A DNA stretch of 47,796 nucleotides, the filler included, from Jimgerdemannia flammicorona (lineage: Eukaryota), in the NCBI GenBank assembly GCA_003990765.1. It is 2 parts of 2 records of this genome, joined end to end, with 100 filler letters (N's around TTAATTAATTAA, not from the genome) between each part and the next. Parts side by side here need not be neighbours in the genome. Positions count along the whole stretch, not along the records: positions 1 to 23,852 come from RBNJ01001052.1; 1 more part is not named here. One strand, 5' to 3'. The notes below the pieces were generated by a model. It was not told the DNA's origin. It saw only the letters and a program-made list of their open reading frames with translations, and searched no databases. How positions within the stretch are numbered: the stretch's first letter is position 1; each line of letters starts with the position of its first letter. Shown piece after piece: positions 4,771-37,933 of this stretch. Made by a program: the position numbers and the translations under genes.

Positions 4771-4884
4771 TGTCCACAAAAGAGTCCTACCAGACATGGA
4801 GGAAGAAGATGAAGAGGACACAGAGGTCTTCATGCACTTGGTGAACAAGAACAAGAACAAGACACCTAAGCTCACAGATAAGCA

Positions 4885-5010
4885 GTGGTATAACAAGATC
4901 ATTGATAGCTATGCCCCTCAAGGAAGATGCCCCCATAGTACTAGGATGTACTGCTCTGAACACCTGAATGACTGCTGGTCCTGCATCAGTGAAGTTAGGA
5001 AAATCTGTCA
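4885..5010 (+). other. Cys/His-rich module in element A polyprotein
   Basis: WYNKIIDSYAPQGRCPHSTRMYCSEHLNDCWSCISEVRKI; homologous to 37760-37885 (-). Confidence 0.7.
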
Positions 5011-5110
5011 ACAGAAATATAAGCAAGAAGCCACCAAAGCAAAAAGGAAAGCTAAAAAAGATGACCAGTCCCCAGAGCTTCAGCCTGACAGTGACAATGA
5101 GGAGGAATAA

Positions 5111-5536
5111 GAATCAGACATCACCCTCAAGGTCAAGAAGTTTTACCCCAAAGTCAAGATTCCAGAATATAAGACTGAAGGAGCCATAGAAATAGACCTT
5201 GTCAGCATTCAAGATGCTACCCTCAAACCACAGACCACCACTCTACTTGGCACTGGAATTGGAGTCAAGCTGCTAGAAAACCATGCTGAAATTATTAAGA
5301 CCAGGAGCAGTCTGGCCAAAAGCAAAATCTCAGTTGAAGGAGGAGTAATTGACCCTGATTACACTGATAAGATCTTCCTCATAGTCAGGAATCACAACCC
5401 CACCACCCCATTAAAAGTCAAGAAGGATGACAGGATTGGCCAGATGCTGATCCACGAAATCAAGAAGCCCAAGATCATAGAAGCCATTGAACTCATCAAG
5501 ATCAAGAGAGGAGAACAAGGCTTTGAATCTACTGGA
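5111..5536 (+). pseudogene. dut: Element A dUTPase domain (between PR and RT)
   Basis: All five trimeric dUTPase motifs are recognisable: GAIEIDL, RSSLA, GGVIDPDYTD, DRIGQM, RGEQGFESTG. Confidence 0.92.
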
Positions 5537-5719
5537 AGAGGAGTCTATGCTACTACCAAGATTACCAAACTTGGGCATAAGAAAGACAAGCACCAGAATA
5601 AGCATATATATATAATTGGAGAAAACTTTCCCCTAGAAGAACAACTTCTCAAGATCCTATATTAGAACAAAGGAGTACTTGCTACAGACTTCAGGAATAT
5701 CCACAATCAAGAACCTAAG

Positions 5720-8592: not shown

Positions 8593-8602
8593 AGGAGGAA
8601 GA
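8593..8602 (+). promoter_or_regulatory. Polypurine tract of element A
   Basis: AGGAGGAAGA directly before the TGTAAC start of the 3' LTR. Confidence 0.8.
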
Positions 8603-10144
8603 TGTAACAGTGATCCCAGAATGATGACATCAGCACAGGAGACAGTCTTTCCTTGCAAGCCACCAGATCAGAGTACAAGAAGATCATACAGCATACAAGA
8701 TGAGCAATGATGACCAACTGTGAGTCATTGTGACCACAGTACAAGCATCTTGAGGAATATAAAAGAAGGATCAAGAAACTACAATAGTAGCAACCAACAA
8801 GACCTACCAATCCCAAAATAGCTCAAAGACTTATCACAAATGAAATGCCTGCTGCTCACCAAACCTCAAAGTCAAGAAACCACCAAGGCATCTCAGTTAA
8901 AGAAAGGATGTTCCAAGACATCAAAAGAGCCATGAGGACCAGCTCAAGAAGGACTTCTAGTGTCAACCTGGGTACTGGTGACCCTTATCACTATATCCTC
9001 TACCACCATGAAATAGAAACAAGGATCACTATTGCTACTGAATGCCTCCAAATGTGGCAAGAGTATGAAATAGGAAACCTCCTCTGCTGGGAGTTCCCAC
9101 AGGCCAGTATTCAAGAGTTACAAGATGCCACTCCCATAGATATATATGAAACAAGGATAGCTAAGAAGATCTATCAGATCTTCAGATATACACCATGGTT
9201 GATCCCCAACTTGGAGTATGTTAGAGTCTCAGATTTCAGAGACCTGTCATCCTGCTATATCAATGCACTAGAAGCCAGGGTGGCTACAGAAGTCCAGTCC
9301 ACTATCACCCTCAATAGTGATGAAATAGAAGACTTCTGGCATCCTATCCTCCAGAACAATCCAGACCAATTCCTGCAAGGATTGATCTCAGTATTCCAAG
9401 GCCCAAGCATCCAGGTTAGACCCCCCCAATATCCCACATTTGTTTCCTATTTTGTAGAAGAGAACCTCATAGACTGAAGAGCTCCAGACCTCCTTTATGC
9501 CACCAAATGTGATGATGTCATCAGCAATAATATCATCCCACACAACATATGTAAGATGTATGATGAAGTGTGCAAAGTATTAGAAAACAACCTACATGAT
9601 AACAATGACAAGACAGATGAGATGTTTGCAGACCTCATCTATTTCAAAGACATTCTGACATCTGATGATGAAGTCCCTATGGTCTTGAACATTCTGCTCT
9701 AAGTTCCTTGGTTATACTGAATAATGCCAGCACTGGTATTCTGATGTGACACTGAATTATACCAGTATTCTGAACCTATATAACTATTAGTACCGACCCT
9801 AGAACTTAGCAGTTTTTCCTATTCTGGTATTTTATTTTAGTTATTGAAATTTATATTTAGCTTTATATCTTAGCAATCATTGAATTATATTTTGTATAAA
9901 TACTCCTCTTATTTCCTCTGAAATAAAGTCAGTCAATTCAGTTCCTCATAGTACAATATACACACTTCCTTGCAAGCAATCTAAGAGATAACAAGACAGT
10001 TTAAAAATAAGAAGTTTGAGGATTATAAGACCTTGAGAAGACACTCCAATAAGAACTTGTTTATAACAAACTTGAGTTAGTCTAAGAGATATACCTTGAA
10101 GAGAATCTGGTATATTTGAAGGACTCAGCGACCACTACATGATA
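8603..10144 (+). repeat. Element A 3' LTR (1542 bp)
   Basis: TGTAACAGTGATCCCAG...CCACTACATGATA; TATAAAA at 8758-8764 before the ORF; TATAAATA at 9895-9902 and AATAAA at 9922-9927. Confidence 0.95.
8845..9702 (+). pseudogene. LTR-encoded accessory ORF (~285 aa, unknown function), 3' LTR copy
   Basis: 210-aa ORF 8845-9477 continues in frame past one TGA (TGG in the 5' LTR copy) to ...FADLIYFKDILTSDDEVPMVLNILL*; homologous to 32791-33618 (-). Confidence 0.85.
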
Positions 10145-10148
10145 ATAG

Positions 10149-11480
10149 ATATATTCAATATACTATACTTAGCTATAGCTCTAAATCTGTATAAATATTC
10201 CAGAGATTTGAGTGAATAAACCTTAGTCTGAAAGCTGAAAAAAAGCAACAGTTAATTATCTAATATACTTAGGAGAAATAGCTGCTGAAAGCTACTTAAT
10301 CTAAAAAGAATTATAATACTTAGGAGGAATATATACTGTAAGCTACTGCCAGAAGTTAAAAACTTTATTTCTTTCTACTATAGTCTACTTTTTAATATAA
10401 AGAAGTCTGTTACTAATTTGGTATATGTATCAGACTAAGTCTGAAGCTTTACTTTCTTTCTTAAGAATAAAGAAGTATTCTTATCAAAAACTCTCAGATC
10501 TAACTTATAAACAATTCTCAGTCTGATTATCTTAGAATACAAGTATGATATCTTTATCTAGTATAAGAATCTGAAAGTAATACTTGGACTGTACCTCTAT
10601 AACAGATAGAAAAAACTTAGTACTTTCTCACAGAGCTCAGAACTTAAGGCTGATAGTTATCTCTAAATATCTATAATATATTAATTCTATCAGAATATAG
10701 TTTTATACTATTTATTAATAATGTGTAAAATATATAACTTATATATATTATTAATAAAATTACTTTTTCTATTTATTATAATAAAAGTTATAAGGCTAAG
10801 ATATTCAAGATAGTGTACTCAGTTTGTATTTATAATTTCTACTAAATATTTACTATATTAGTCTCACTATATATATATATACTATAATTATTCAAATAGT
10901 AACTAGATAGTAACTCAACTTATCTAAAATACTTCAAAGATTCAAGTAAATAAACCTTAGTTCTAAAAGTTAAAAAAAAAAGGAAATGACTAGTCTGTCT
11001 ATAATATACTTTGAGATATATATATATTTGTTAAGAGTTACTCAATTTAAGGAAAAAATTGTTATACTTAAGAGAAATATCTACTTAAAAGTTATTATTA
11101 AAGAGATTATGAGCTTTATTCTCTTTTCTACTCTAGTTTATTTTTCAATATAAGGATGTCTACTGATTTTGATCTACTTATCAGATTAAGTCTGAAGAAC
11201 TTTAAGATATCTGCTATATTTTGGTCTACTTGTTAGGTTAAGTCTGAAGATTTGTCCAAAGTTTAAAGAAAGAACTTAACTACTATTTGAAGAAATCTAC
11301 CAAATTACTATATTGTACAGAATCTATATATATGAAGAAACCCACTGAAATTATCAGCATTATGTAAATAAGAGAACTTATACTTTTAAAAACCAACTGA
11401 ATATTTTATTACTTTTAGACAAAATAACTGAGAGCTTAAGTTAAGCTACACTGCTATTCTATTTTGTAATTTACAATAGA
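10149..11480 (+). mobile_element. Two heavily decayed LTR relics related to the element B LTR
   Basis: GAGTGAATAAACCTTAGTCTGAAA near 10210 and a variant near 10945 match 31381-31405; 11400-11470 matches 41440-41510. Confidence 0.65.
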
Positions 11481-11527
11481 GATAGAGATATAAATTCAAA
11501 TATTGAGATTGAAATTAGACTAACTGA

Positions 11528-11625
11528 TGATAAGAATCAGAATAATAAGAATCAGGATAATGAGAATTAGGATAATAAGAATCAGAATGATAAAGATCTT
11601 TACTATAAGAATTCAGATAATAAGG
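11528..11625. repeat. Degenerate 15-bp tandem repeat (GATAATAAGAATCAG-like)
   Basis: About 5-6 imperfect units are visible. Confidence 0.6.
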
Positions 11626-12099
11626 ATAAGACTGAGATTTATTTGATCTCATTCTACTATAGGCTATTTTGACTAAACTTCAATTAAAAGTAATCATTAA
11701 TTTCTATATATGTGGGGGTACCTCAAACATAAAAGAAGAAAAAACCTATCAAATTATATGACTCAGCCCACCAGTTGGTTGTCCAAAAAATCAATGCTTT
11801 TGCCAGTAAGTAAAGAGTCATAAGGTGATCTGTTAAGCTTGAAAAATGACCTATTGAATTACTGATAATGGATCCTGGCTTTGATTGCACATGTTCTACT
11901 TGGTATACATTCTTCTTAGTGGCCCTTCAGAATTCTTTCATGCTTCATTTTTATTTTGATAAGTTGTGAATATAGTGTTTATTTACCCTCACATTTATAC
12001 ATTTTTACATCTCCTTATTAACTAATACTATATAAGAACAACATGTGAGTATAGAGGATGTGGATAGAATGAAGATGTTGATAATATTATAGATTGCCA

Positions 12100-13115
12100 A
12101 TGCCTGCATTCACCAAACATATACACCTATGCAAGATGGGATTTCTCTTAATCTAATAGATGAGATGTACTGTAAGTACAGCGCTACTTCTTTGAGCAAT
12201 ATATCAGTTTCCCCCTTACTCAAGAGACTCATCAGTTGGATTCTAGAGTTACCAAGACCAATGTTAGACTCCCAACATCAGCCAAAATACATTTTAGTTT
12301 CTACTTCATGCCAATGATTGTAAGTATAAAACAAGATAACCATGCGAACATGTGTAAGGTCAAGATGAGAGGAAGAGACTACTTAGCTTTTTCATTGATA
12401 GATTACCAACTCTATAGCCACAAATACAAACCTCAATGGTGTGAGATTGGTGTCTGGTGGAGATCAAACTCACCAGCCCTCTTATCAGGATTGGGGTGCA
12501 ATTTTTTCTCTGTCTATCCCCCACTCTTATTAGGTTCCCAGTGAGAGGAATTATGCAATTCCTGAGGGTACAGGAAGTATTTTCTTGGTCCAGGCAGCTA
12601 CTTGAGGTTTGCATATATTGGTTTGTGTAGGAGAAAAAAAGATGAGAGAACAAGCTTCAGTATTGGTTGTCGAGTATATGGTGGAAGCATTAGTAGGGGA
12701 TAAACAGAGAGTGTCAGAGTTTTGTTGATCTGGGGAATGCGATATCATTTCAGTTTCTGCTTCATGCGAATAATTGTAAGTTCGAACACATGTAAAGATG
12801 AGAGGAAGAAGTTACATTAATGCTCCTCCAGTGTATAACGATCCCCACAAATGCAAACTTCGCTGGTGCAAGATTAGTGCCCGGTGGAGAACAAACTCAC
12901 CAGCCCTCTTACCAGGGTTGGGGTGCAATTGTTTTTCTTTGGAGCCACAATCTATCCCCCGACAACATCAGATCGGACTGGCCACTCTTATTTAGGTTTC
13001 TAGTGAGAGGAATTATGCGATTCCTGAAGGAAATGACAAGGGAATAGGCTTCAGTGCTGGTTGTCAAGCAGTAGGTGGAAGGGTTAGCAATGGATGAACG
13101 AGTGTCTATCTTAAA
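12100..13115 (-). pseudogene. Probable intron-containing gene relic with an internally duplicated exon/intron unit; product unknown
   Basis: About 12310-12590 and 12760-13035 are diverged direct repeats; the minus strand shows ctaacag acceptor, an open ~98-codon exon (FKIDTRSS...LWGSLYTGGAL) and a GTAA donor. Confidence 0.4.
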
Positions 13116-16100
13116 CTGTTAGGTGAGTAACTGAAGTTTTGAATTGTATCACATGACATAAGTCTAAGAGGAGCAACCCGTCGAGCCACATTATAATTAC
13201 TATATGCCCATCCTTCTGATAGCACATTCCATTCCCTATTTATACAACCCATTCCTTCCTCTAACTATATAAAATCACATGGTTTGCTGCCACAGAAAGA
13301 ATACAGCGAGGGATTGAAAGCTGGAATCCGTAACCACTACCCCACAGAAAAAGCATATAGAAAGCGGTCGAAAAACAAACTAGGAAATACGTGCATAGAG
13401 TGAAATGCAACTAAAATGCATGAATAGCATCGAATCAATCTATGGCATATACTGAAACGTCTCGCTTGATATACCAACATCCAATGGTTAAATATCTCCA
13501 TTTTCCAAAAAATAAACCGCAACAACCAGTCTTTCAGTTCCCTCCCCTGTTCTCTCTCCCAGTTTTCCACTCTCTTTCCCCTCTCATACAAACTTCCCTG
13601 CCCATAACTGCCCAAGGGGCACTCTCTGTGCTCTACATAATATATTATGATAGTCTAAAGGCACAGTATGTAGCTTCGCATTGCAGTGACTGTCCATCCA
13701 CCGGACACAAACTTGGTTGGCCCTTCATTTTTTGGAAGGTGTTTCAAATTGCCCTTGGCATTACCAGTGGGTCGACGGGTTGGGACCAGCCAGCTGGTGA
13801 TCTTCATTCCAAAAGATAAGTAATGCAAATAATTTTTTCTGCCTGCCCTTTTCTTCCTTTTTTTATTATTATCTCCGAACTAAAATTTTGATCAGTTCCT
13901 TATGCCAGTCTTGGTTGCTTTTAAACCAACTGATGAGCCCCTTGAGCAAGGGCGAAACTGGTCTCTTCTAGGTCATCTCCATTCGGTGGCGTTTACATGT
14001 ATTTTATATATTTATTAAATTGGACACGTCAACACGTGTGTTGTTTAAGCTCCGTTTGTGATCTTCCAGACAGCTCTTCGGTGTGTACTACCATTGACTA
14101 GTCGGTATTTGAAATCGCGATTATCCCACTCTGATTGTTACTGTCGTGCAAGAGGTACTCTATCAATACTAGTCTTATTGAAGAAGGTGTGTTGATTTGC
14201 AGGTCGTGTGGGTTGTGGACCAGGAGGAAGTAGGGGTTGGTGGTGTGGATGTGTGGGTTTGTGGCTCATGTGGGTGCTTACCACCGAAATCGGCATCATC
14301 CTATAACCTGCTTCCTCCTTCCTCCTCTCCAGACACATGCAGATTGAGAGACTCACAATGCTATCTCATGCCATATGGGAAAGACACTTTCCGCTGAAAT
14401 CATTACCACCCTGTAGCTCATGAAGTTCCAAGTCTACCTCGACCTTCTCATGATCAAAGCCTAAGAAACCTTTATCATTCTCAGTGTGTTGTATCATGTG
14501 AGGAGAAGGTGATGATTTCATCTCTGTTTTTTGTAGGATTGGTGGGTGGTCATATCTGAGTGGCTATGTGTGCGTTTTGAACTATGAACTATTATTGTGA
14601 ATGTATACAGTCTCTTAGATTATCTGTCGTTCATTTCTACAGGATATCCTGATGGCCCAATTCACGGATGACCAGCTCTACTCTCTCTGCGGCACCATCT
14701 CCCGTATCGAGCACCTCATCGCTGTGCAGCTCATAGTTGTACAGCTCATGGCCATGCAGCTCATAGGTAGTCTCGTTGATAAGAGAGGATTGGGGTACGG
14801 GGGGGAGTTTCCAACCCTCTTCAGATGGTTGTTTCAGTCATCAACACTCATTGGCAGTATTATATGTGGAGGTATCGCGCCATCCAGCCTGAGGAACCAG
14901 GCCATGACACCTCTGCCTAGGCCATCGAGGAGCTTAAGGAGCGCCATGACTAGGTTCATCAAACTGGTTGGCTGGCAGGAACTGGGTCTGGATCGTGGAG
15001 GTGGCAAAGAGAGTGGTGGTAAGTAATTTTTATTTTTTATTTTTTTTTTCCATCTTCGTGGGGGGGGGGGGGGGGGGTCGAAAATTGGATAACTGACATA
15101 TTTGTGGGCACCCTTTTTCATCTTCATATTCTCAGATCCTCGGTGACACCTACTGGCCTTCTCGAGCAACCTGTTCCCATCGCCCGACTCACTGTGCTCG
15201 ACCTTCCTGACGGATGTGTCAGAGTGGTGCATGGCTCTGGTCAAGGCCGAGATCAGGTAGTAGGTAGACAGGTTTAAGGCGGTGAGGGGCGAGTCAGCGG
15301 GTGAGGGGCGACCCGGCGGTGAGAGCTGGGAGAGCAGTGGGGATGAGAGGGGGGAACTGGGGGAGAGTAGCAAGAAGATAACGACAAGGAAAGAATGGGG
15401 ATAACAGTGGGTTTTGTAAGGGCCATGTTTTTTCCTTGATGTGGGTTCATATTAGGAGGTAGATGATTTAATACGCACGGTCTATTGTTCCACAGAGGCA
15501 ATGAATGCCACTGCCGCAGACACCAATCACTCTACCAAGATCAATCTCAAGACCACGCGAGGCTCATCATGCTGGCCCCAGTTGATGTCAAGCATTGCAT
15601 GACCCTCCTGATGTAGTATGGCAGGTTTGGGCAGGAGGTCGACGACCTCATCAAGCAGGTGCGCATGGGGCTCGACGGTTCTGAGGCCGAGCGGGCGGCC
15701 ATTTGTAGGGTTCATTTGAAGGTTTGTATTCTCTGTAATTCTTCAGTCAGTTAAAGGTGTTTATTTAGGGAGAAATAAAATATCTGGTTTTGGTTCTCAA
15801 TCCCAATCCTATTCTTCTATACCGTCCATCAAGCTCTATATGAACGGCAATCACATTTCGGTGGACCCGAGCCCAAATCCGGCAACAGCGCTGGCACTGG
15901 CGCAATGGCCTCGCACGTCTCCTCACAGCACATCGTGGATGCACCGTGACGACATCACTTTCGAATCGCTGGCTGGGCCGGACACTGTTGTCCCATACCT
16001 TGACATTGTTGTAGGTGGCGGTCGCGGCAGAAGGGGTGCTGCGGACCTGGCCATGGAACCATTTTGAGCTATAATACCAACCCTAAGACATTACATAGTT

Positions 16101-17073
16101 AACGGCGACGAGAACTGTACTCTTCGTACCGGGCAGCCACATTCTGGAAGAAGACGTGCTGCATCACATCTGTGACTTTGTCAATGGGCTTGGCTTCAGC
16201 GCAGGGCCAAGAGGGCCATGCCGGTAATAAATATGGAGGTGATACTGATTTGGAATTGTTGGCATGCTCCTCCTTTATCGTGTCACTTTGACCTGACTTG
16301 CCACAGTTATCCTTGCTTATCGCATTTGAGTCATCATGTCGAGCCTTTGATTCACCCAAACCCATCTCACCACGTGGATTTTTTATTTCTCATCGCACTG
16401 TTCTGCAAGTCCATAGACCACATTTTACAGCCAGGCGCTTACAGTAAGGGATGCATCATGCAGGATACCAGGATCAGTTTTATTACAGGCAAATGTTGTG
16501 CACGAACCATTTGCAACTGGTTAAACTGATCAAGTTTCGTGGGTTTGACAGGAGGGAAGATTTAGGTAAAGAAAAAAATAAAATAAAATAAAATAAAGAA
16601 TTGTATCTGAATATGATGAATAAGGCATAAAGCGTGTTCGCTAGTTTAGTATGATAACATCGTACGGACAAATAAAAAAACATACTGAGGAGCAGTCAAA
16701 GGCCAACACGCAATTACAGAGTGACTAGAAATCAAGGGTGCTCATGCTGGTGATGGAGGGTGATGAAGAAGTGATTTTCATGAAACAGGGGAGAAGGGAA
16801 ACAAGTACATCACATGTAGTTTGGGTAATGGGTACATGTCCATGTCGCTGCCCCTTACCTCTCAGCATCTAATCAGTTTTCGGCTGAATCGGACCCTTAT
16901 ACTCATAAAGTTGTGTGACGGTTCCACAAAATTGATCGTCAGGTTTCACTTGCCATAGGACCCAAAATACCCCTTGCGCTAAGGCTTAGCCACATGGGAT
17001 GTGTTAATTTTAGGGCATGTGCTCTTACAAGTTGCAAAAAAGTCTTGTCAGCCAACTATTACAACCGTGAAAA

Positions 17074-18926
17074 ATGTCAGCCCCTAACTCTACACCACAT
17101 TCAGAGCAGGCAGATTTGTTAGCGATAAGGAGAAACCTAGTCAATGACAAGTAATAGATATGAATCAATCAATTCATTATTTAGTTTAGTGGTATGGGAT
17201 CATGTTTTCAAATTTGTTGTGGTTCAGAGTTGCTCATAGAGGCAGCAGAAGTTGAGAACATGCTCGTGCTGCAATATATCTATGCCGCATCTTCACTCAA
17301 GATCCAGGCTGAGGGTAAGAGGGTTTTTATTTTGATTTAATTTTGGGAGTATAAAAACTTGCATTGTCATGGGCTTATTGCCAAAGTTCCAGTAGAGTTT
17401 GACAATGAGAAGCGCAAGTATTACCAAGCAGAGTTGGTCAGGGGATGGAAGAAAACAATCCATAGGTGCGAGTTCGAATTTTTCTCATTTGTGATTGTCA
17501 TGGCTTATTTTAATGGAACTTGACATTTTCATATAGACTTGAGCTGATATTTTAGCATCTATCGTGAAGAAATGCAACACTTACACGTTGTGAACCAGGT
17601 GCTTGTAGGTGTTGGTGCTGAATCTTAGTAAGTAAAAGAACTCATAAATGGTTGCCCAGACCAGTATGGAAAATCGTTTTTTTCATACTGTATCATTTTC
17701 TCAGCTTCGGAAGACCAAATTTCCCCGTGAACTGGTTCTATAAGGAAAATGGTATTGATTCTGGCAAGACACTGATGGTCCTTGCACAATTCGTCCCGGA
17801 TACTTTGTGGCGCTTCTTGACTTTCGAATGGGGTCTGATCGACCAAGAAATACTGGAATTGATGCCAAATTTCATCGCCGCCTACATAGATGGCAAAACA
17901 TCTCCATTGGGCAAGATACCAGAACCGCCGTTTTATAAAGACCTCACCCAGCTTTACACAGACATCATGAACGGTTTGACGGAAAAAATGTTCGAGCTGG
18001 GTAAAAAGGATGTGAACAAAGTATTTAAGGAGACCGGAGAAGACGCTGAAAACTCACAGTTGCTGGGCAACAGGGGAATCCCGAAAATAACAGATGTGGC
18101 AACGGCAAAGGCGGCCCTTCAACAAGTTATTGATCAAGGTAATTATTATTTGCTTGCATGCTTGAATCTGGAATACCCTCTCTTCTTCTCTCTATTTTTT
18201 CTTTTTTACATTTTTCTTCTTATATGTTTATATCTTTTTTGAACACTCAAGGTGAAGGCATTGGGGCCACTGACGTGAATGGGCATTTTCAAAAGTTCAA
18301 AAGCATATGGGATGCTTTTCGGGCTGAGTTAGTGATTGATGAGCATTTCCGGTCAGCTCAGAATGTGATGGCGAATCCTCAGCTGCGGTATCATTCAGAG
18401 GTGTCTTTGAGAAAAACTCAACCCCAGAGCAAAAACAGGCAGTGAGCGAAAACCCGCTCAATATCAGATGTATTCATAAGGTATGCTGCTACTATATTAT
18501 TTTAATTTTATTTTATTTTTATTTTTTTGGTTATGTAATTATAACCGCATTGGCTTGAATCAGAGTGCTGATTGCATATTCTGGTTTTCAAGATCCCAGA
18601 TGGCACCATGGCACACAAATTTTTGAATCTACTTTGTGAAGCCTATGAGTTTTTAGTGATCTGGCTCAGGCAGATATACACTCATAAAGTTACTTGCAAA
18701 TGAGAATTTCATACTATCAGGCAGCTTGCATTCCTCCCATATATGTCTGAGGTCATTCTGCCATTATTGGAGATAAGATGGAAATTCTCTTCCCTATATT
18801 TGTTATTTTTAAAATATAATTAATAGGTCTCTCCTCCAATGTTTACAGATCATTACCAAGATTGTTGTTTGGCCATCAGGTACCTTGTTCATGTTCACAA
18901 TTGCCAGACAACATGCTAATTTCCAG

Positions 18927-18962
<36 letters not shown>

Positions 18963-20490
18963 TTGTCTAATCCTTGCCATTCATCTTTCAAATGGCTGCA
19001 TAGTGCAATCCTCTGGGAACATTTTCCTTGGTACTAGCTTTGAAATCACAAATAGTGTAATGTCCTTGCTGAGCACTCCTGTGCTATGTATAATACAGAT
19101 TAAGAGGCTGTGTGAAATGGAAGATGATGTCAAACAACTCATAGAACTATACCAGAAATCCGAATATAATAATCAGCTGCTGAAGCATGCCTTGAAAAGG
19201 CTTAAGGATCTCAGGCTGACCTTCTACTACCTGAGTCAAGAGTTTGATTTTCATAGCCATTGAATCTCACCACCAATACCTGGTGATATATGTATCCAAC
19301 ATGATTCTGAAAATTCTTTTTGGGTTTATAATTTTATTCTCAATTGGCTGATGCTGTTTCATTTCTATTTAGAACCTTACACCATTAGTAGAATAAGGGC
19401 TCAAAAGATACTCCAAAGATACAATGAATTTTGATCCTCAAATAGATATAGACATCTATCTTAAGCTCAATTTCAAAGGTTAGGCCCATTATCAACTTGC
19501 AACTAACCCAGATTCCTTGAATGACCCATATGGCACTACAGGCAATAGTTTTGTATTCACCAATGAACTCGACCTTGACTCTGTTCTCCAATTTCAGTCA
19601 ACTGCAGGCACTGTTGGCAGACCAGACAAATCTTTCAAATTTGGTGTTATTGTAAAGAAGACCACCAAGTGCACACCAGCAGGCAAAAGCAATATCCCAG
19701 ACATATTCCAAGATGTCAAAGTGGACCTTCTTGGATCACCTGTACTCTAAGGACTCAACTATATTGTATCCTGCAAAGAAAATAGTCAACCCTTTCAAAC
19801 TTGAGATCAGAGACAAGTATAACAAACTGCTTCTTAAGTGAAGAGCAATTGGAAAAACCTTTGCAGAGGGAACTGCCTCTGAGCAGAGGTGGTGTATAAG
19901 ATTAGTAAATGACATTGACAGAAAGCATGAATATATCTTTCAAAACTTCCTCTTATTAGATTTTTTGTTTTTTTTTTTTTTCAGAGAGCCCATCTTGGTA
20001 AAGAGTACTACAAATCTCAATCTCTTCAACATCAGGCAGTCAGAACTTATTGGTCATACAGATGACTATTGGGTGAACTGAATGGAGGTTTTAAAACAAC
20101 AGTTGTCCAAAATTGACAACAAGCTTAGTACTAAGCCATAGTACTTCAGATACAGCTGGATCATATTAAAAAAGCAACACAGATCATGATGTTGAGATTG
20201 GGGCTCTGGGAGTGGCACCAGTACACCCTCAACAGTGACAGAGGCAGGGCCATGGAAACAGCGATTCCATTTAAGGTATGAGTGATATTGAAGGATTTGT
20301 TTCTTTTGAAGCTATATATTGGGACTAATGGACAGCTATGTTTTGTAAGTTCTCATCAATAGTAACCCAAATGACAATATATCCAAGATGAACAAATGGC
20401 TCACCATCTATGACCTGAGCTTTTTCGATATAGATGTCTTGAGTATATACATCTAGATATATAATCTTCCTTCTGCATATTTCTAAATTC
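17074..20490 (+). pseudogene. Spliced ferritin-like domain gene (PF12902/VioB C-terminal-like) with an extra C-terminal domain; decaying
   Basis: Exons give LLIEAAEVENMLVLQYIYAASSLK (from 17230), IYREEMQHLHVVNQVLVGVGA, YFGRPNFP, TLWRFLTFE, DLTQLYTDI, AKAALQQVIDQGEG, GHFQKF, PYMSEVILPL, LGTSFE, joined at GT..AG sites in matching phase. Frameshift near 18400 and stops from about 18708. Start and end are approximate. Confidence 0.8.
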
Positions 20491-20511: not shown

Positions 20512-21449
20512 GAAATGTTAACTCTAACCAATGGCTTACATTCATTTTGATTACAAGGGAACTCTATACATTCCTATAAACCCTGTTCAGAATAGCTGTT
20601 GAATGGTTTGTGCTACATATATCAGAATTACAATATATTCACTATACTGCTCAATCTGAGTCATACATATATATCCATTTTATAACATATATCTTTTTAA
20701 TAAAAATGTTTAAAAGGAAGAGATTACTCACAAAGATATTGATATATTAAATAGACTCAGTAATATTATTATTATTAAAATTGATTTATGTCAAAAACTC
20801 CAAAACATTTACTATGAACAATACTAGCTTTTAATAGAAAGGGTAAAATTTGAACTTTAAATTACTATAGCCAATGTTGGCAAATACATAATTTTCTGTA
20901 AATTTTGTTTTGAGTTATTATATACTATAGTAGATTATCTATAGCAACTATCACCCAAAGTTTATCAGCCTCAATCACTACCACAAAAATCTCCCCCCCT
21001 CTCCCCCCCCCTAGTTAAATATCTCTCACCTTCCTCTGGCTTATCAATTTGATATATTGGTAGTATCATTGGTATTAGTATTATTGGTATTTTGAAGAAA
21101 CTGTTTTGTAAGAAAATGACATAGGTTTAGCCTCTTCTTTAAGATTGTATTACTTACCTCCTCACCTTTCCTAAATACCAATATTTGCAATTATACTTCA
21201 CTTCTATCACCCAGTTGATGCCCTTTACAACCGAGTTCAAATATGGGCAAGACTGGTGGTCAGGTAATTGTTACAACCTTGTCTCATGAGTCTCTCTCAA
21301 ATAAATGATCAAAAATGAAAGGTTTATACAAATGTAAACATACCAAATCTTCTCAACATTTTTGATACATTTGAGGGAAGCTGACATGCAGCTTACTTGA
21401 AGAGACTATGTGTGATATGGGGGAAGAGAATGATGTACCAAAATATAAT

Positions 21450-23620
21450 TATGATAAATATCAATAAAGAAATAGAGTATTATTATAACTTTATATAGAT
21501 GACAGACTCTGAAGGTATTATTGATATACTAAATGATATTATTTAATCTATAGTATCTGAAAAGTCATTTGATTATTTTATTAAAAATATTAAAAAGAAA
21601 TAAAGATGAGCATAGTTTGAAAGAGAGAAATTAGTCAAAGTAAAAAAAAACTATATTAGTAAAAATCTAGAAGTTATCAGTTTTTAAGATTGAGTAAAAG
21701 ATATTAAAAGATATTTACTAAGTTAACTTTGAAGTATTTGTTAAAATATTATAAAATATTAAGTTTATAATCAAAGATTATTTATTTGATAGTAAAATTC
21801 TTAGCTAATATATATTATTAATAAATATACTATAAGACTATTATAATATGCCTACTCAATGAAGATAAATTACAAGGTTGGGACAGCTATATAGATTGGC
21901 TTGAGCCCTTAGTTACTTTGTCAATAAGTAACAAAATGTTCAAAAATAGATATAAGTTCTATTCACATAATGTAGATAATTTTAATAGGTTTTTAATTAG
22001 GACTATATCTCAATATCAAATATTTGGACCTTAGTACTTTATAAAACCTAAAAATTAGAGCCAATAGTCTATCTTAGATTATCTATAATATATTAATTCT
22101 ATTAGTATATAGTTTTATCATAATTTAGTAGTAGTAGAGTTTCTTTTACCTATAAGCAATCTCTCTCAAGTATCTACTATAAATATAGTTAACTTTACAA
22201 GAACTAACTCAGTATCTCTAATACTAATAGTGATAATTAAGAAATACTTTCACTCTGGCTACTCTGCAGAACTAAGTTGAAGAAGTCAATAGAATCATTA
22301 TTAAGTAGACTGAAATCCATAATAGCTAAGAGAAATTCAATAAACTCAACAATGAGACTATATAAGAAATATTCAATATATATATTTATAATATTCAACA
22401 AAGAAGTTACCTATATTAAAAGGATTAAAGAAGAGTTTGAAAAATTATTTAGAAGCTATTTCTTTGAGAAATATATATAAGTAATACTCTCAAATAAATT
22501 GAATCAAATTCAAATTGAATTGAGGGTCCAATTTGAACTTTATGTTTTAAAATATAATATTTTTAAAAAAAATACATTCAAATTTAACAAGCTAAAGATT
22601 ATTAAATTTGGATATATCTTTATTGAGTTATTATATTTTGAAAAATAGAGTTCAAATTGAATTTTGAGTATAGGTATTGGTATTTAGATTAGAGCTCTAA
22701 TATATTTAGTAGTCTTTTCTTTATCTATAAATCAGGAGCTATAGTAGAAGTAGTCTTAATGATAGAATCTTATTTCTTTACAGCTTTATTAGTAGTATAG
22801 TGGACAATATAGACAGATAATTTAAATAATAGTATAGAAGTAAGCATGGGATCTAAAGGAGGAAACTGAAGAAACAATAGACTTAGATTTGTTAATATCT
22901 GAGCAGAGTGATCTGGATATAAATATCAGTAATAGAATCAATAACTTATTAGATAAAAGTGCTAATTTATTAATATAGTTTGATATTTTCATAATAAAGC
23001 TCTATGTGTATTTCAGACTACAATAAGAAGCTTCTGTTAGTGCTAAAAAAAATGCTAAGCAAAATCTTGAATGCATAAAGAAGAAAAAAGCCAAACATGC
23101 TGCTGTCAAACATACTACTGTAAAACATATTATCAAAACATCTGAACAAATTGGTATTGCTCTCAGATAAGCTCAAAATATGATCCTAGCATAAGACTTA
23201 AAGCCACTTGGAATATATTTTGAATTATATATCCAAGTATTCAATATAAAAGAAAAGGATACTCTCTTAAAATATCACATGTTTAGTAAGAAACTATGAT
23301 AAGATGAGCAAACTCAGCTTATACCTACTCAACTTAGAAAAGAACATGCTGCTACTAAACTGATTTGAATAGCACTATCTCATATTTAAGTAAAACTATA
23401 AAATAATCATATATGATATATACAGTGAATATATGATATTACTACTAGACTAGCACCAAACCAAGTTCAAGATATATAAAGACTAAAAATTTGAAATTTC
23501 ATTTATATATTATAAGAAAATACACAGATATCTTTAGAAATATGTCAATTGTCACAGACTTCAGCCATCAAGTGCAGGCTTTAGTAATGAAGAAAAACTA
23601 TTATAGGGGAGATAACATAG
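21450..23620. mobile_element. Extremely AT-rich, CpG-free relic DNA, probably ancient transposon remnants (class not assignable)
   Basis: Composition matches the oldest TE relics in the window; 22075-22135 resembles 10670-10720; ~30-bp inverted arms at about 22529-22560 and 22629-22660. Confidence 0.5.
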
Positions 23621-23852
23621 TGTAATGTAGCGGACGCTTACTCTTGAAAGTACGTCGGATTTCTGTATCTTGAAAACTTGACTTGTTCTGACTCTCGCAG
23701 AGTCTTCTTGAAGTTGTAGGGGAGGGTGGGTGAGTTCGAAGTGTATCTGCCCGCAGGCTTACTAGTTCCTTTGCTATCTCTTTGCTTTGAACTATTTCGA
23801 TCTGAGGTTTATTCACTCGAAGATACTGGGTTATTTATACAAGTTTGCTAGC
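23621..23852 (-). mobile_element. 3' part of a young, CpG-intact LTR related to element D's LTR; cut by the contig end
   Basis: Reverse complement aligns with 42981-43204; ends ...CGCTACATTACA; TATAAATA at 23839-23832 and AATAAA at 23813-23808. Confidence 0.8.
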
Positions 23853-23952
23853 NNNNNNNNNNNNNNNNNNNNNNNNNNNNNNNNNNNNNNNNNNNNTTAA
23901 TTAATTAANNNNNNNNNNNNNNNNNNNNNNNNNNNNNNNNNNNNNNNNNNNN
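23853..23952. other. Artificial 100-bp assembly spacer
   Basis: 44 N + TTAATTAATTAA (stops in all six frames) + 44 N. Confidence 0.95.
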
Positions 23953-24168
23953 CCAGTCCTCCTTGAGTGCCCTCACCACCGTTCGACCCTCCAAAGGCCC
24001 CCATCCCCAGGCCATAACCCCTCCCCACTTGCTGCCAGCCGAAAGCCCCAGCTCCCCCCGACCCAGTATGCCCGTCGGAACTCTTGCTTGAAGACATATT
24101 GCTAGTACCTTTACTCCTAGTTGTGTCGAGAACTGTTGCTTGAAGTTTTGTGTAACGTGAATTATACA
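23953..24168. mobile_element. End of a CpG-intact insertion (probably an LTR) abutting element B gag
   Basis: Retains CpG, ends ...AATTATACA, then switches abruptly into mid-gag, CpG-poor sequence. Confidence 0.45.
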
Positions 24169-25020
24169 GGAGAAAGGTGGAAATTGCAGTCTTGAGGAAT
24201 CTCTCAGATGAAAGAAAAATCACTATCTATAAGGCTCAGCTCAGAGAACCAGCCAGAGGAATTTTCCATCAAACAGTAAACAACCCAGATTTAGAACTGG
24301 CGAGACAGATACAAGCAGTAATGTCCTATAAGCTAGAATATCAGGCCATGGTCCACTGGCTCATTGAAAAGTATGCAGGAAACGAAACCTGCCACAAGGC
24401 TCAGGAATCCATCATGGGGATGAAGATGAATCTTAGAGAATCACCCAGAGCCTTCTTTATAAGAATCCAGAAGAGAATGCATACTGCCAGGTTCAATGCC
24501 ACCAACTAGGACATCATAGGTCCAATGACCTTCATGAATGGAATTCCCTCAAAAATTGCTCAGCATGTCTGCACCCTAGGTATTAGAAGGTCTGAAGAGC
24601 AAGTAGATGCAGCCCAAGAATTCTTTGATGTCAGACAAGGAACTACTTGGAGTAATTATGACAAGAAAGAAGATAAAGAAGACATCCTGGTTAAAGCCCT
24701 ACAAGGACTCCTTCAAGGATAAGAAAGAACTGAAGAAAGAAGGCTAGCCAAGAAAGGAAAGAAGGACAGAAGTGAAATCCAAGACCTTAGCTCCAAGTTG
24801 GATCAATTGGTTGGACAGATTGAAAAACTCACTAAATGTGAAAATTGGAGCTACCAAGACAATAGAGGATACCCACCACAGAGGAGCCAAGGTTATCCAC
24901 TCAGAGATAACAGAAGTTATTAATAAGAAGAGAGAAGATACTCTGTCCAAGATAGAGCCCAAGTCCAATGCTTCCACTGTAGACAATTCAGACACTATGC
25001 CACTGAATGTGATAACAAAA
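24169..25020 (+). pseudogene. gag: Element B gag with CCHC knuckle
   Basis: KAQLREPARGIF, ESPRAFFIRI, TFMNGIP; knuckle CFHCRQFRHYATEC at 24969-25010. Confidence 0.85.
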
Positions 25021-25619
25021 GAAGTAACCGAAGGGATTCAGAATCATTAAACCAAAAGAATGAAACTTGGTACAAAAAGACTGAAGCTCATCCTGTTGAA
25101 GATTTCAAGGAAGCAAGCAATAGTGAAGACTACAGTGACCTAGACTTGTACCCCACCAAGGTTACTACCCAAAAAACAGTATACCCAGCAGAGAAGAGGA
25201 AGAGACCTATAGGAAGGCCATCCAGGAACATCAGCAGAAGAATTATCCAAGAATAAGATGAAGAACATGAGGAAGAACAGGTAGAAATACCTCCCCTCAC
25301 CCCCTCACCTTTTGTTCCTGAGACAAATAAGTTGTCACCAGAAGATGAAGAAATGGAACAAGAAGAACAGGAACCTGCTGCTCCAAAGCCCAAGAAGAAG
25401 TACACCCCAAAGATCATACCTAGAGATATCTACAATGAAGCCTGGCAGAAGATCCAAGAGACCAAGATAGAAGTTCTCCTCCTGCAGTTCCTGTAACTAT
25501 CACCAGCTGGAGTCCAAAACAAATTACTAAGAACCACCAGATCTAGCACTGGCTGAGTCCCAATCCCACAGCAAGAACCAGTTCCCATCCCTGTTCAGAC
25601 AGCTGAAAGACATATCAGC

Positions 25620-25980
25620 ACCTACTTATATGGAGATATTGGAGAACAAAAGGCAAAGATCCTCATAGATATAGGAGTAGCTATCTGTATCATTACCAAA
25701 TGGTTCCTAGATACCCTTCAATGGCCCATTGATAGACCATCTAACCTCAGCATCATAGTAGCAGATGGAGCCCAAACTCAACCCCTTAGAGAAGTATGAA
25801 ATATCACTATATTCTTTGGACACATCCAGTTCTCTATCCCTAAAGCTGTTATCACCGAAGCTATCACCTATGATATGATTCTTGGTACCAACTGGATGAA
25901 GGAAATGAATGCAGTTATTGACATTGGCCAATAAGTACTCAAGTTCAATTACTGAGGTAAGAAATATAGATTTAAGATAA
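25620..25980 (+). pseudogene. Element B aspartic protease
   Basis: ILIDIGVAICII (mutated DTG), IIVADG, YDMILGTNWM. Confidence 0.82.
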
Positions 25981-27272
25981 CTAGCTATGAGCAATTAAAG
26001 AAGAAGAAGAAGGTCACTATTTAGGAAGAATATACTAGTAGTGAAGAATCTACCACAGAAGAAGAGGAAGAATCTGAAGATAGAAATGATCTCAGACTCA
26101 ATCCCCAAATTAACCTGATGGATGACAGATCAGAAGATAATGTGTGGGTTAAGAACACCATCCCCATCACCATTGGAGCTATTGCAGGAGAAGCCAAAGG
26201 ATGTCCTATCTGCTTCAAGAGACACAAGTGTCCTGAGCACTCCTCCAAGATCATGGAAACAAGGAAATCACCTGGCACAGCCTGCCCAGAGTGCAGAAGG
26301 AAGAAGAAGAAATACAGACATGTTCCAGAAATACCTGCAGCCGAAGCTGCAGAAGTACAAGCAATTTGGAGTCAAGAATCATCTGAGGAAGAAGAAACTC
26401 CTAATCAAGAAGTCCCTGAACAAGAAGCACCTGAAGAAGAAGAAGTCCCTGAACTCATTCTCTGGGATAATTCTCATTGGACACCACCCAAGGACAATGA
26501 CCCTTGGAACATGGAAGAAGAACCCAGTACAATCACCATTATCCCAAAGAAAGAAACTCACCAAGAGAAGGCTTTTCGGCTTGGAAGGTGTCCACACCAA
26601 ATGGTCTTCCACTCTCTCCGAGACTACTGCTATCAGTATCATCTATTGGATCAATAAGAAAGATAGAGACCCCAGAGATCAGAACTCCCAACTACACTTG
26701 CACAGTCAACTACCTTTCAAGAAGTTACCACAAGGTTACAAAGTCAATTTAGAGGACAAAGCTTCTTCACCCAGAGAGAAATATATCCCTTGTCTACTCT
26801 TCTACCCACTTATGACCAAGATGGATATCTATTCCCAAGGCAACAAGAGATTAACAGCCAGAAACACTATTTTTGAGCAATGGGATATTACAACCATAGG
26901 AGATACCCTGACTGCCAAGACTACAGACATCAGAAGATTCACCTCAGTCATGATGTTGCAGTCCATACTTTAAAGAGAGGAGATAATAGAGGCCAGAACT
27001 GAAAAAGCTAAACCAAGAAGCCAGGAAGAAGAATCCTCAAGATCTATGATTTGGGAGAAGACATCCTAGCTCTCATCAGACATGCAATCTGCCAAGGATG
27101 GGCAGAAGATGCCACCAACTTTATGGAAGCTCTAGACCCTAAAGGAAGAAGGGGAATCAACTATCTTCGAGACCCCTCTACTGGAGCCAGATGGCCACAC
27201 CTCAACCTCAGAGCCTAGAGGCTCTCTACTAGTGGAGCCTCAGCTTTAGGATAGCCTGAACTCAGCAAGGAC

Positions 27273-27680
27273 ATTGCCCAGTATGCCCTGCTACATCCCA
27301 AGGCCAAACCCCCAACCAAAGCCCACCCAGAGGATGTAGGATATGATCTTCACAGCCTGGAGGATGAATCTATCAAACCTGGAAAAACCTTCATGATCAG
27401 AACTGGATTAGCCATGCAGCCACCCCAAGGAGCTTACATCCAGCTGACCTCAAGGTCCAGACTTGCCAGACAAAGAATAACTATGGAAGGAGGAACCATT
27501 GACCTGGGATATATAGATGAAATCAAGGTCATCCTATACAACAGCAGTGCAGAAGGGTACCAAATCATTAGAGGACAGAAGATTGCCCAAGCAGTCTTTA
27601 TGAAAGTCAAGACCCCACAGTTACAAGAAGTCTCTGAACTAACTGAAGGAACAAGACAAGCCAAGGGATTTGGAAGTTCA
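27273..27680 (+). pseudogene. dut: Element B dUTPase domain (between PR and RT)
   Basis: PTKAHPEDVGYDL, RSRLA, GGTIDLGYIDEIKV, GQKIAQ, RQAKGFGSS; the frame is open across the domain. Confidence 0.93.
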
Positions 27681-28229
27681 GATAGGAAGGAAGTATACCT
27701 CCTTCAAGTCAACTATCTTAAGAGAAATGTTCCTCAGCAAGTATACCAGCAACCAGTCAGACTGTACAAGAATCTTATCCTGGAGCCCAGAGAACAAACA
27801 ACCTTCGAAATCTTTGCACCACCCAACCTCAGAAACCTTTTCTTTGAACCCAAGGAAGATATTCCCCATCTGGACATAGAGGGACACACATTCTCTAACA
27901 AGATGAACCCAGTACACTCCCAAGCAACCAACCAAAGTTAAGAGACCATCATCTTACTGAAAGGAACTATCATAGGACATCTGGTGCCTTTACTCAACCG
28001 AACTCATAGGGAAGTTTATGAACTAAATCTATCGGGAAATAGCAAAAGGTCCCAGAAAAAAGGAAAGGCCCCTCTGTGACCCAAGAGACAGTGAAGCCTT
28101 CCATCAACATTGGAGAAGAATTGACACCTCAACAACAACAATAACTAGTAGAACTTCTCAACAAATATCAAGATATCTTCACTACTGATTATGGCAATCT
28201 GCCATACAATCCATCATATCATTACAGCA

Positions 28230-29490
28230 TAAATACAGGAAATATAACACCCATCTGGCAGAAACCCTATAGAATACCCTATCACTTGAAAACATTCAAA
28301 AAGGAGTACATTCAAGAACTCTTAGACAATGGGGTCATCTGACCCTCTTCCAGTCTCTGGGCTAGCCCTATATTCATTGTATCAAAGAAAGGAGGATAGA
28401 GACTTTGTGTGGATTACAGGAAACTCAATTCAGTCACTAAGAAGGATGCTTATCCTTTGCCCAGAATCGATGACCTTTTGGACCAGTTACAAGATACCAG
28501 ATACTTCAGCAGTATGGACCTCTTCACAGGATTCCATGAGATCTCCATGGACCCCAAGGACACTCCAAAGACAGCCTTTCTTGTTCTAGAAAAACTGTTT
28601 GAATACCTCCGAATGCCCTTTAGACTCTGCAATACACTCCCCACCTTTCAGAGGATGATGAATTCAGTCTATGCCCCCTTGATCCACCACTGCCTGATTG
28701 TATATATGGATGATTCCAACATTTATTCAGCAAATTTTGAAGAACATCTGCACTATCTAGAGGAATTCTTCAAGCTCACTCACAAAAACCACTTGAGGCT
28801 GAATGCAAAGAAATGTTACTTTGGAAAACAGAAACTTGAATTCCTTAAATTCATAGTTTCAAAAGAAGGAACTCATGCAGACCCAAAGAAAACTGAGAAG
28901 ATCAACAATTGGCCAGTACCCAAAACTCTGAAAGAGACACTATCATTCCTGATGCTAGTATCCTACTACAGAAGGTTTATCAAAGACTTTGCCCAAATTG
29001 CTACTCCAATCTGAATCCTTCTCAAGAAAGAAGTACCATTCAAATGGACAGAAATGCAGGAAAAAGCCTTCAGAGAGCTTAAGAACCACATGACTATGGC
29101 ACCAATCCTTATGCACCCCAATCTACAGAAGACATTTATACAGATGCTTCTAAAGATGGCCTTGGGGCAGTTCTGGCCCAAGAAGGACTTGACCAACAGC
29201 ACCATGTGATAGCTTATGCAAGCAGAGCTATCAATCAGCAGCAGATGAACTATGGTAGCACTAAACTGGAATACCTTGCAGTCATATGGGCAGTCACTCT
29301 GTTCAAACATTACCTCATTGGAAAAAGATTCACCCTGATCACAGACTATATAGCTCTCAAATAACTATTCAACTACAAGGAACTCACCAGAATCCTAGCC
29401 CACTGGATCCTTATCCTTCAGGATTACAAAATCACCATCATTCACAAAGCAGGAAAAGCCCACAACAATGTTGATATACTTTTCTGCCAG
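28230..29490 (+). pseudogene. pol: Element B reverse transcriptase and RNase H
   Basis: WASPIFIV, LCVDYRKLN, YPLPRIDDLL, VYMDD, LVSYYRRFI, YTDASKDGLGAVL, LITDY. Confidence 0.95.
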
Positions 29491-29559
29491 CCTCAATGAA
29501 CCAGAAGAAGGGTGTTCTAAGGAACTATACCTTAAAGGAAGCTCCTCAGACTATCAAGG

Positions 29560-30560: not shown

Positions 30561-30576
30561 CTCAGAGGATAGATCA

Positions 30577-31062
30577 ATGCCTCCAGACTCTTATCCTCAG
30601 CTCTTTCCAAGCTCTGCTAATTCCCCTGCCCCAGTTTACCAACTTGAAGAAACCCCCATACAATTTATCCAGAAGCATCAAGAGAACCTTGCTATTGCCC
30701 AGAGGTTACTTCAGATCCACCATCTACAAGTCTTCTATAACATTGGACAGCTATTGACAGAACAACCCTATATAAGGAGCCTGGCCAGAATCACTCTCAG
30801 AGAAGCAAGAACTGTTGAATGAATCTATACCCTGTATAATCGAAATGTTGGAGCCCTGGTGCAGACTCATTTCTATCTCAATGATATCTATCAGATGAAT
30901 GAGACCACCTTTTAGAGTATTCTTCAACAAGTAGACATCCTATTCCCTGAAGAACAAGAAGAGGATCTAGAGCCAGAATAAAGTGACCCTGATACAGACA
31001 ATGAAGATGATGGAACAGGTATAGATGCAGAAGCAGCTTATGCTTATTGGGATGATGACTGA
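30577..31062 (+). pseudogene. Element B extra 3' ORF (~160 aa with read-through of stops), remote relative of the A/C accessory ORF
   Basis: LQVFYNIGQLL...EARTVE*IYTLY...FYLNDIYQMN followed by an acidic tail, located between IN and PPT. Confidence 0.6.
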
Positions 31063-31101
31063 AGAACAGTCTGAGACAGACTATCCTTCAGTAGGGGCTG
31101 A

Positions 31102-37885: not shown

Positions 37886-37933
37886 ATCATCTTCCTTCAT
37901 GGTAGTAACCTTTTGACTGGAAGGTTTGTTGAT

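Follow-up and report, generated by a model that had tools for sequence, protein, structure and literature searches.

Two decayed Ty3/gypsy retrotransposons, elements A and C, in a 47,796-nucleotide (nt) stretch of Jimgerdemannia flammicorona DNA (assembly GCA_003990765.1; hereafter the window) carry copies of the same accessory gene, which we call open reading frame (ORF) 3. We propose that ORF3 is a genuine separate 3' cistron, located after pol in fungal Ty3/gypsy elements that also carry a dUTPase, and that it encodes a compact helical domain joined to a disordered acidic tail, would be transcribed from its own promoter and would have descended with its elements over a long period. Taken together, and leaving aside the guess that the protein is a transactivator, this account of architecture, expression and history stands at roughly even odds (about 0.5). 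One component is far firmer, in that ORF3 is very probably a real, selected retroelement gene. No curated family or fold matched it, which bears out the first-pass annotation of this DNA in describing an unrecognised, non-env accessory gene common to two different gypsy lineages.

Retroelements were defined by self-BLASTN together with Pfam scans of all 104 stop-to-stop frames of at least 80 amino acids (aa) in the window, which proved to be a nest of decayed Ty3/gypsy elements (A, B, C and D). When both ORF3 proteins were compared with the window by tblastn, three copies were located: in the 3' long terminal repeat (LTR) of A (8845-9699), in the 5' LTR of A (1529-2382) and within C (33699-32794). 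The A and C proteins align along their length, as had been claimed; the ungapped alignment spans 168 aa, with 39% identity and 64% positives (E 3e-43), and every motif pair quoted in support of that claim was found in this alignment or in the read-through translations. The place assigned to the gene in the 3' LTR of A, 8845-9702 (+), was right, but it is not a single open frame: a TGA at 9475-9477 makes it a pseudogene, and the internal gene of C (32791-33618, -) is likewise interrupted by a TGA at 33049-33051. Each of the two ORFs (8845-9702 in A, 33618-32791 in C) has just this one in-frame stop. Because intact relatives read tryptophan at the stop site in the A type, and arginine or lysine in the C type, the stops are G>A or C>T transitions on a frame that once held approximately 275-285 codons. 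The gene in the 5' LTR of A (1529-2386, +), 79% identical in aa to the 3' copy, is more decayed: its ATG has become ATA, several stops interrupt it, and beyond approximately residue 200 the frame is shifted.

Word-indexed searches recovered seven A-type clusters and one C-type cluster of relatives, and an exhaustive hidden Markov model (HMM) search of 1,835,955,588 representative proteins returned nine hits at E <= 0.001. Seven of these were judged real (P0002, P0007, P0010, P0005, P0011, P0014 and P0015); the other two, long repeat proteins matched in 6-9 short stretches, were judged false from their sequences. A fifth subfamily, represented by P0020 (246 aa), was added through cluster look-up. 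All searches combined gave 12 clusters, and the family comprises at least five deep subfamilies with identity falling to 17-34%. Relatives are recorded only from ENA or JGI metagenome sources, on contigs of 0.6-4.8 kb. For the seven clusters that were looked up, contigs measure 1.0-4.8 kb, the sole name is 'hypothetical protein' and neither an NCBI nor a UniRef record is listed. An intact C-type gene of 291 aa, with its flanks, is present on the metagenome contig L001 (1535 nt). Fragments of family A were abundant in all four public runs (5982, 1120, 592 and 460 contigs; soil metagenomes and one organism), whose contigs cover the whole of element A at 80% likeness or better, ORF bins included, and read C or G at many sites where the window reads T or A. 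Presence in only the window copies would, by the terms of the first-pass annotation, have told against its claim; the 12 clusters and the fragments in four of four runs show that it is not confined to them, and that the window copies are mutated versions. The run contigs provided no informative joints, starts or ends, and dips in contig depth over 9408-9711 and 2112-2415 are not interpretable.

Sequence divergence points to long-term constraint. The ratio of nonsynonymous to synonymous substitution rates (dN/dS, Nei-Gojobori) between the window C copy and L001 was 0.205 (0.18 in the domain, 0.30 in the tail; dS 1.36), compared with 0.54 between the two LTR copies of A, which have decayed only since insertion and served as a neutral baseline under the prevailing mutation bias. 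Codon-position identity between A and C was 0.47/0.61/0.37, with synonymous sites saturated. The low dN/dS and the codon-position pattern thus indicate long maintenance of ORF3 by purifying selection, although the window copies are dead, in keeping with the earlier proposal of an accessory module maintained by selection. The accompanying proposal of a genome that mutates repeats heavily also held: in A, 170 of the 186 differences between the paired LTRs are transitions, in C 78 of 79, and there is a bias towards CpA>TpA changes. This near-exclusive recourse to transitions indicates that repeats in the host genome are mutated in a manner resembling repeat-induced point mutation.

The ORF3 protein is approximately 250-340 residues long and consists of a compact helical domain of approximately 170 residues and a disordered acidic tail. 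An AlphaFold model based on a 13-sequence alignment, with the tail-less member P0007 as target, reached a predicted local distance difference test (pLDDT) score of 75.8 and a predicted template-modelling score of 0.72, and displays nine helices over residues 22-188 with both ends disordered; an earlier 6-sequence alignment had given a pLDDT of 37.7 and was unusable. The helical domain has an isoelectric point (pI) of 5.6-5.7 in five of eight members (range 4.7-8.7) and meets the tail at a conserved boundary, F-(E/Q)-G-P-(P/S)-I. Tails are 58-149 residues long and uniformly acidic in the eight full-length members (pI 4.1-5.1; 17-28 aspartate plus glutamate). In the A and C types they carry F-(A/E)-D-L-I-x-F as well as (V/I)-L-N-F near the end, and the D-L-I-x-F word is repeated in P0010. 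Judged by composition only, six of nine members have a 39-aa tail window with a net charge of -10 to -12 and 7-9 W/F/Y/L residues; in P0014 the best acidic-hydrophobic window falls in the domain and not in the tail. Nothing in ORF3 points to enzyme activity. The highest 19-residue Kyte-Doolittle mean was 1.05 or less in eight of eight members, and N-termini are hydrophilic. With neither a signal peptide nor a membrane span, as was first noted from the sequence, ORF3 is not env.

Profile and structure comparisons of the kind proposed with the first-pass annotation, including a fold model and Foldseek, matched no known domain or fold. The best Pfam E value among 11 family members was 0.073 and the best PHROGs value for the family 0.093; NCBIfam gave no match and a sequence profile search of the PDB no hits. 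Foldseek comparison of the 13-sequence model with the PDB gave a best E of 0.71 with template-modelling (TM) scores of at most 0.22, the BFVD structure search a best E of 0.31, and the ESM Atlas scores no higher than 0.83 with TM no higher than 0.43, which is chance level. No sag, nef or bet chain was among the matches listed in the PDB and BFVD searches. Comparison with gag by hhalign offered no sign of a duplicated gag, the family profile aligning with C gag over only eight columns (E 0.13). As modelled, ORF3 is apparently a new orphan family of retroelement accessory proteins with a new fold. In a separate observation, the peptide ILFEGPSQ of C gag (39709-39732, -) resembles the domain/tail boundary LFEGPPI of ORF3 (33052-33075, -), either as a shared protease site or by chance. 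A protease-site motif F-E/Q-G-P-S/P common to gag, pol and ORF3 was considered and rejected when the pol match turned out to be out of frame, leaving only the 8-residue gag match.

Literature on fungal gypsy ORF3, on ORFs within LTRs and on internal promoters yielded no description of the family, to which the supplement of PMC2864245 might be relevant. An extra ORF common to several lineages of LTR retrotransposons is nonetheless an already known kind of gene, from rotifers, and is hinted at for fungi. According to the available text of the respective papers, bdelloid rotifers have non-env ORF3 types common to diverse retroelement lineages (PMC5408684), and fungal gypsy elements have been drawn with an uncharacterised 'add. 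ORF' (PMC2864245).

Element A is bounded by LTRs at 1287-2863/2864 and 8603-10144/10145 (+) that are 86% identical by self-BLASTN; the 3' LTR begins TGTAAC and terminates TGATA. Each LTR of the pair contains one A copy of ORF3, in agreement with the claim that the A gene lies within the LTR. A polypurine tract (aggaggaaga, 8593-8602, +) directly precedes the TGTAAC of the LTR at 8603, and tract and LTR start lie 242 nt upstream of the ORF3 ATG. Thus, the whole of ORF3 falls in U3 and is copied into both LTRs, and its presence in the 5' LTR means that the gene was already part of the LTR when A inserted. The arrangement in C is different: ORF3 sits between the chromodomain/integrase end and the polypurine tract (ggggagaagaa, 32780-32790, -), which separates its stop codon from the TGTAAT of the LTR start, and it ends 11 nt before the 3' LTR (31954-32779, -; 5' LTR 40297-41121, 90% identical). 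In contig L001 the polypurine tract and TGTAAT likewise directly follow the ORF3 stop codon. Only in A, therefore, does the ORF lie between the polypurine tract and the core TATA box at 9895 and occur in both LTRs; in C it ends before the tract.

The flanks of the L001 gene are informative about expression. The pol-end frame stops at position 152, a TATAAAAG box lies at 296-303, 80 nt upstream of the gene, and the ORF3 ATG at 376 is in another frame. The stops and the frame change between the end of pol and ORF3 indicate that ORF3 is a separate cistron. A TATAAAAG box is found 87 nt upstream of the ORF3 ATG in A (8758-8765, +; also 1442-1449 in the 5' LTR), and a TATAAATA box lies 72 nt upstream of the ATG in C (33683-33690, -), where it is the only sense-strand TATAWAWR of the 7.5-kb internal region (32780-40296). 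Each LTR of A has two TATAAA-type boxes, the one before ORF3 and that of the core (9895-9928, +). The core comprises TATAAATA at 9895-9902 and AATAAA at 9923-9928, the putative genomic-RNA promoter and a putative shared poly(A) signal, and a similar block is present in C at 32437-32401. On this layout, ORF3 probably has its own promoter, although with limited confidence. Transcription would start from the TATA promoter 72-87 nt upstream of the ATG and yield a 3'-coterminal mRNA of approximately 1.15-1.3 kb that ends at the AATAAA of the LTR. In the C lineage the gene stands just before the polypurine tract, whereas in the A lineage the cassette of TATA box, ORF and poly(A) signal resides in U3 and is duplicated into both LTRs at each round of reverse transcription, such that any A-type LTR, solo LTRs included, would constitute a complete expression cassette. 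The simplest account of the difference between A and C would be relocation of the plus-strand priming site, U3 being whatever lies between the polypurine tract and R.

The same type of ORF3 thus occurs in lineages that differ in pol architecture, with the order protease (PR)-dUTPase-reverse transcriptase (RT) and no chromodomain detected in A, and dUTPase-PR-RT with a chromodomain in C. The first-pass annotation had regarded the LTRs, gag, primer-binding site and integrase types of the two elements as otherwise very different. This is accurate for LTR length (1.5 versus 0.83 kb), for gag, for the primer-binding site, which differs after TGGT, and for the chromodomain, confined to C. It is overstated for the LTRs as a whole, as several cis features are common to A and C, namely the TGTAA termini, the junction ACAACTTGGT, polypurine tracts that resemble each other and a core block from TATA box to AATAAA that is 73% identical over 37 nt (E 0.011). 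Between A and C, ORF3 is 37-39% identical over 168-193 aa (61% over 251 nt), and 46-48% identical when intact genes are compared. Corresponding aa values are 42% over 144 aa for the RT core (56% over 603 nt), 36% for the PR flank, 35% for dUTPase and 31-35% for integrase (70% over 67 nt); gag is essentially unalignable. ORF3 is accordingly conserved like the best part of pol and no more, which excludes a recent transfer. The further suggestion that the module was exchanged between families is not established, ORF3 being as diverged as pol (39% versus 42% aa identity in RT).

Element B (approximately 24000-31100, +) adds a third lineage. Its pol is about equally distant from the other two (identities over summed high-scoring segment pairs (HSPs): A-B 39%, A-C 38%, B-C 35%). 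At the place occupied by ORF3 in the other elements, B has an ORF (30577-31062, +) with three stops, a TATATAAG sequence upstream at 30480-30487, a start reading ATGCCT (Met-Pro, MP), an acidic, aromatic C-terminal tail and then TGTAAC at approximately 31103. A segment Y-N-I-G-Q-L-L aligns with Y-E-I-G-N-L-L of the ORF3 family, and overall similarity to the family is marginal (hhalign E 0.058 and 0.015; BLASTP E 0.36). From its sequence this ORF is a possible remote third member. That B has an ORF so arranged in this position favours an ancestral gene, and we lean, if not strongly, towards ancestry over exchange. ORF3 would then be old in the clade of dUTPase-carrying fungal Ty3/gypsy elements and would have diverged with its elements under purifying selection.

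Several observations weigh against the account as a whole. The dN/dS estimate depends on one transition-mutated partner and a near-saturated dS, and both window copies, in A and in C, are pseudogenes with no sign of present activity. The ORF3 promoter and transcript are read from sequence only, and the window, which is AT-rich and mutated by transitions, holds 102 TATA-like words where 29.6 are expected. The helical domain is acidic and has no evident DNA-binding surface. Tails of P0011 and P0020 are acidic but contain only 1-2 W/F/Y/L in their best window, so that the look of an activation domain is not universal. The remaining points concern history, and they favour an alternative that we hold to be less probable than descent: recombination, likely by a switch of template between RNAs packaged together, may long ago have carried the ORF3 module between A and C, with or without the neighbouring LTR core. 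Of the HSPs between A and C, that of ORF3 scores highest (157 bits over 193 aa; RT, 137 bits). Conservation of ORF3 exceeds that of integrase, the PR flank, dUTPase and gag, and its nt identity (61%) is slightly higher than that of RT (56%). The only other collinear 3' similarity of A and C is the TATA-AATAAA block of the LTR. Although the pol of B is about equally far from those of A and C, none of its ORFs is significantly similar, an asymmetry to be expected from an exchange between A and C. The position of dUTPase differs between A and C, and differences of this kind are read as independent acquisitions in the available text of PMC2864245; sharing of ORF3 types by diverse retroelements is documented for rotifers in that of PMC5408684. 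Against such a transfer, ORF3 is no more alike between A and C than the RT core and nothing demands a move, the at least five deep subfamilies suggest long residence, and B shows the same layout of TATA box, MP start, acidic tail and subsequent TGTAAC. With three pol sequences, from A, B and C, an ancient transfer cannot be told from descent under strong constraint.

What the protein does is a matter for more tentative proposals. A folded helical domain, an acidic and hydrophobic-studded disordered tail and a putative own promoter at the 3' end of a retroelement most resemble retroviral and herpesviral transactivators. Foamy-virus Tas is expressed from an internal promoter, VP16 is an acidic activator, and the activation motifs of VP16 or p53 follow the pattern F-x-x-hydrophobic-hydrophobic. 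By this analogy, activation of element transcription is our leading guess, to be held loosely. The transactivator or anti-silencing factor suggested in the first-pass annotation is a sensible conjecture. ORF3 might act as a regulatory adaptor whose helical domain binds an element or host partner and whose acidic tail recruits host machinery.

Other roles are less probable. The tail could belong to a counter-defence or anti-silencing adaptor in which L-I-x-F words with S/D/E runs, present in one to four copies, act as SUMO-interaction-like or similar motifs and blunt heterochromatin, methylation or repeat mutation. The motifs concerned (DLISFSDDDDE, DLIDFS, DLINFS and DLITFS; repeated in P0010) may resemble SUMO-interaction consensus sequences, and the transitions and CpA bias of the LTRs reveal a host that mutates repeats heavily. 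We nevertheless consider this role unlikely, as the motif is missing from P0011, P0014 and P0020 and this same defence inactivated both copies in the window. Marginally less likely still is a post-transcriptional or particle-associated factor, either a protein for RNA export like Rev, Rex or CERV, using a basic N-terminal helix and an L-x2-F-x2-L-x-I tail signal, or a Gag-binding protein. CERV of the Caenorhabditis elegans element Cer1 is reportedly an accessory protein needed for export of genomic RNA. The A type has an arginine-rich helix (IRRAMRTRTRR), LIIFEDLTI in L001 fits a leucine-rich export pattern, and the gag peptide described above resembles the ORF3 boundary. However, C-type proteins have only a weak form of the basic helix, most members lack part of the export-like pattern, the gag similarity extends over just 8 residues (E 0.13), and an internal promoter would leave no problem of spliced versus unspliced RNA to solve.

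We assign a low probability to the most far-reaching version of these proposals, which has each A-type LTR as a self-contained U3 gene encoding a new-fold factor that activates elements or shields them from repeat silencing and mutation, the module having moved between gypsy lineages. If it were true, solo LTRs scattered across the genome would each be a unit for expressing a counter-defence protein of transposons. Capture of host sequence by LTR retrotransposons is known, but a captured piece of a host gene, or an ORF arisen by chance, that does nothing for the elements is very improbable here, given no cellular family among 1.84 billion representatives, only unnamed proteins among the seven clusters looked up, a dN/dS of 0.2 with a coding-type codon-position pattern, conservation of position, TATA box and MP start across separate lineages, and a confidently folded model.

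The remaining features of the window provide the setting of these genes. Coding order in A is a CCHC-like gag end, PR (IIDTGAGG at 4454), a Cys/His motif, dUTPase, RT, RNase H and integrase. Element C encodes, in order, CCHC, dUTPase, the Cys/His motif also seen in A, PR (LLDSGATG at 37561), RT, RNase H, integrase, an SH3-like domain and the chromodomain (PF00385, E 5e-10). Element C is flanked by a perfect 5-bp target-site duplication, CATTC. Element B encodes dUTPase, RT, RNase H and integrase. Element D (45392-47796, -), a second copy of the C family, is 84% identical to C over PR and RT. Because it is cut at approximately 45392 within integrase, it is uninformative on ORF3; differences between C and D are mostly transitions, with T/A states commoner in D. 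A dUTPase domain is common to all three gypsy lineages (A 5111-5662, +, Pfam E 3e-21; B 27255-27938, +, 1.5e-25; C 38147-38341, -, 6e-06), and dUTPase in fungal gypsy elements is already known from the available text of PMC2864245.

Adjoining dUTPase is a Cys/His-rich segment, W-Y-x-K/R-I-x-D-x-Y-A ... C-x-H-S-x5-C-x-E-H-x4-C-x2-C (A 4844-5050, +; C 37715-37921, -), with a weaker form in B at approximately 26600 (+). It has no Pfam match and, from its sequence, appears to be a zinc-binding module that these elements carry and that has yet to be described. The presumed 3' LTR of B starts TGTAAC at 31103 (31103-31953, +); C inserted approximately 850 nt further on, with CATTC at 31949-31953, and may therefore lie inside or at the end of this LTR. 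Two runs of 44 N (23853-23896 and 23909-23952) are located just upstream of B, whose 5' LTR may be hidden there. AT-rich blocks (G+C content 0.23-0.32) with many TATATATA runs adjoin the elements at 10000-12000, 21000-24000 and 41000-44000 and look like older, heavily transition-mutated repeats. An inverted match (76%) links 23648-23852 with 43177-42981. The stretch 12000-20000 is GC-richer and apparently non-repeat, and may hold a host gene between elements; a frame at 17622-18239 (+) within it has a weak Ferritin-like match (PF12902, E 1e-4).

Accessory genes set complex retroviruses apart from simple retrotransposons, and in fungi almost none has been characterised. ORF3 is a compact folded protein with no known relative, selected in several gypsy lineages and likely to have its own promoter, and is a candidate for the study of self-regulation in fungal retroelements or of their response to genome defence directed at repeats. 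Its helical domain presents an apparently new fold to solve. There is also a consequence for annotation: current domain libraries do not register the family, and LTRs with ORF3 inside them may be mis-called as genes or as internal sequence.

Comparison with known systems places these properties in context. Like the non-env ORF3 types of rotifers (PMC5408684), the present ORF3 is a separate gene after pol, is not env and occurs as one gene type in clearly different lineages, which here also carry dUTPase. The rotifer genes differ in being recognisable enzymes (GDSL esterase, DEDDy exonuclease) or env-like, whereas no known domain or fold matches the present protein. The 'add. ORF' of fungi, which is given no description in the available text of PMC2864245, may be the same family. 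With Tas and VP16, ORF3 has in common a 3'-proximal gene, a putative promoter of its own and a structured domain followed by an acidic C-terminal tail with F-A/E-D-L-I; it shows no homology to them, and its domain is acidic. With CERV of Cer1 it shares lineage specificity as an accessory protein of a gypsy-type element and perhaps a post-transcriptional or regulatory role, but no similarity between the two was found and gene position and host differ. Retroviral genes that occupy U3 include sag of mouse mammary tumour virus (MMTV), part of nef of human and simian immunodeficiency viruses and part of bel2/bet of spumaviruses. ORF3 had no sequence or fold similarity to these among the matches listed in our searches, is neither a membrane nor a myristoylated protein, and lies outside the LTR in C. 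In element A, in the manner of sag, nef and bet, it lies wholly within U3 and in both copies of an unusually long (1.5 kb) LTR. A shift of the plus-strand priming site would have put ORF3 into the LTR in the A lineage, making element A a natural example of a gene coming into U3, to be set beside those of MMTV, lentiviruses and foamy viruses.

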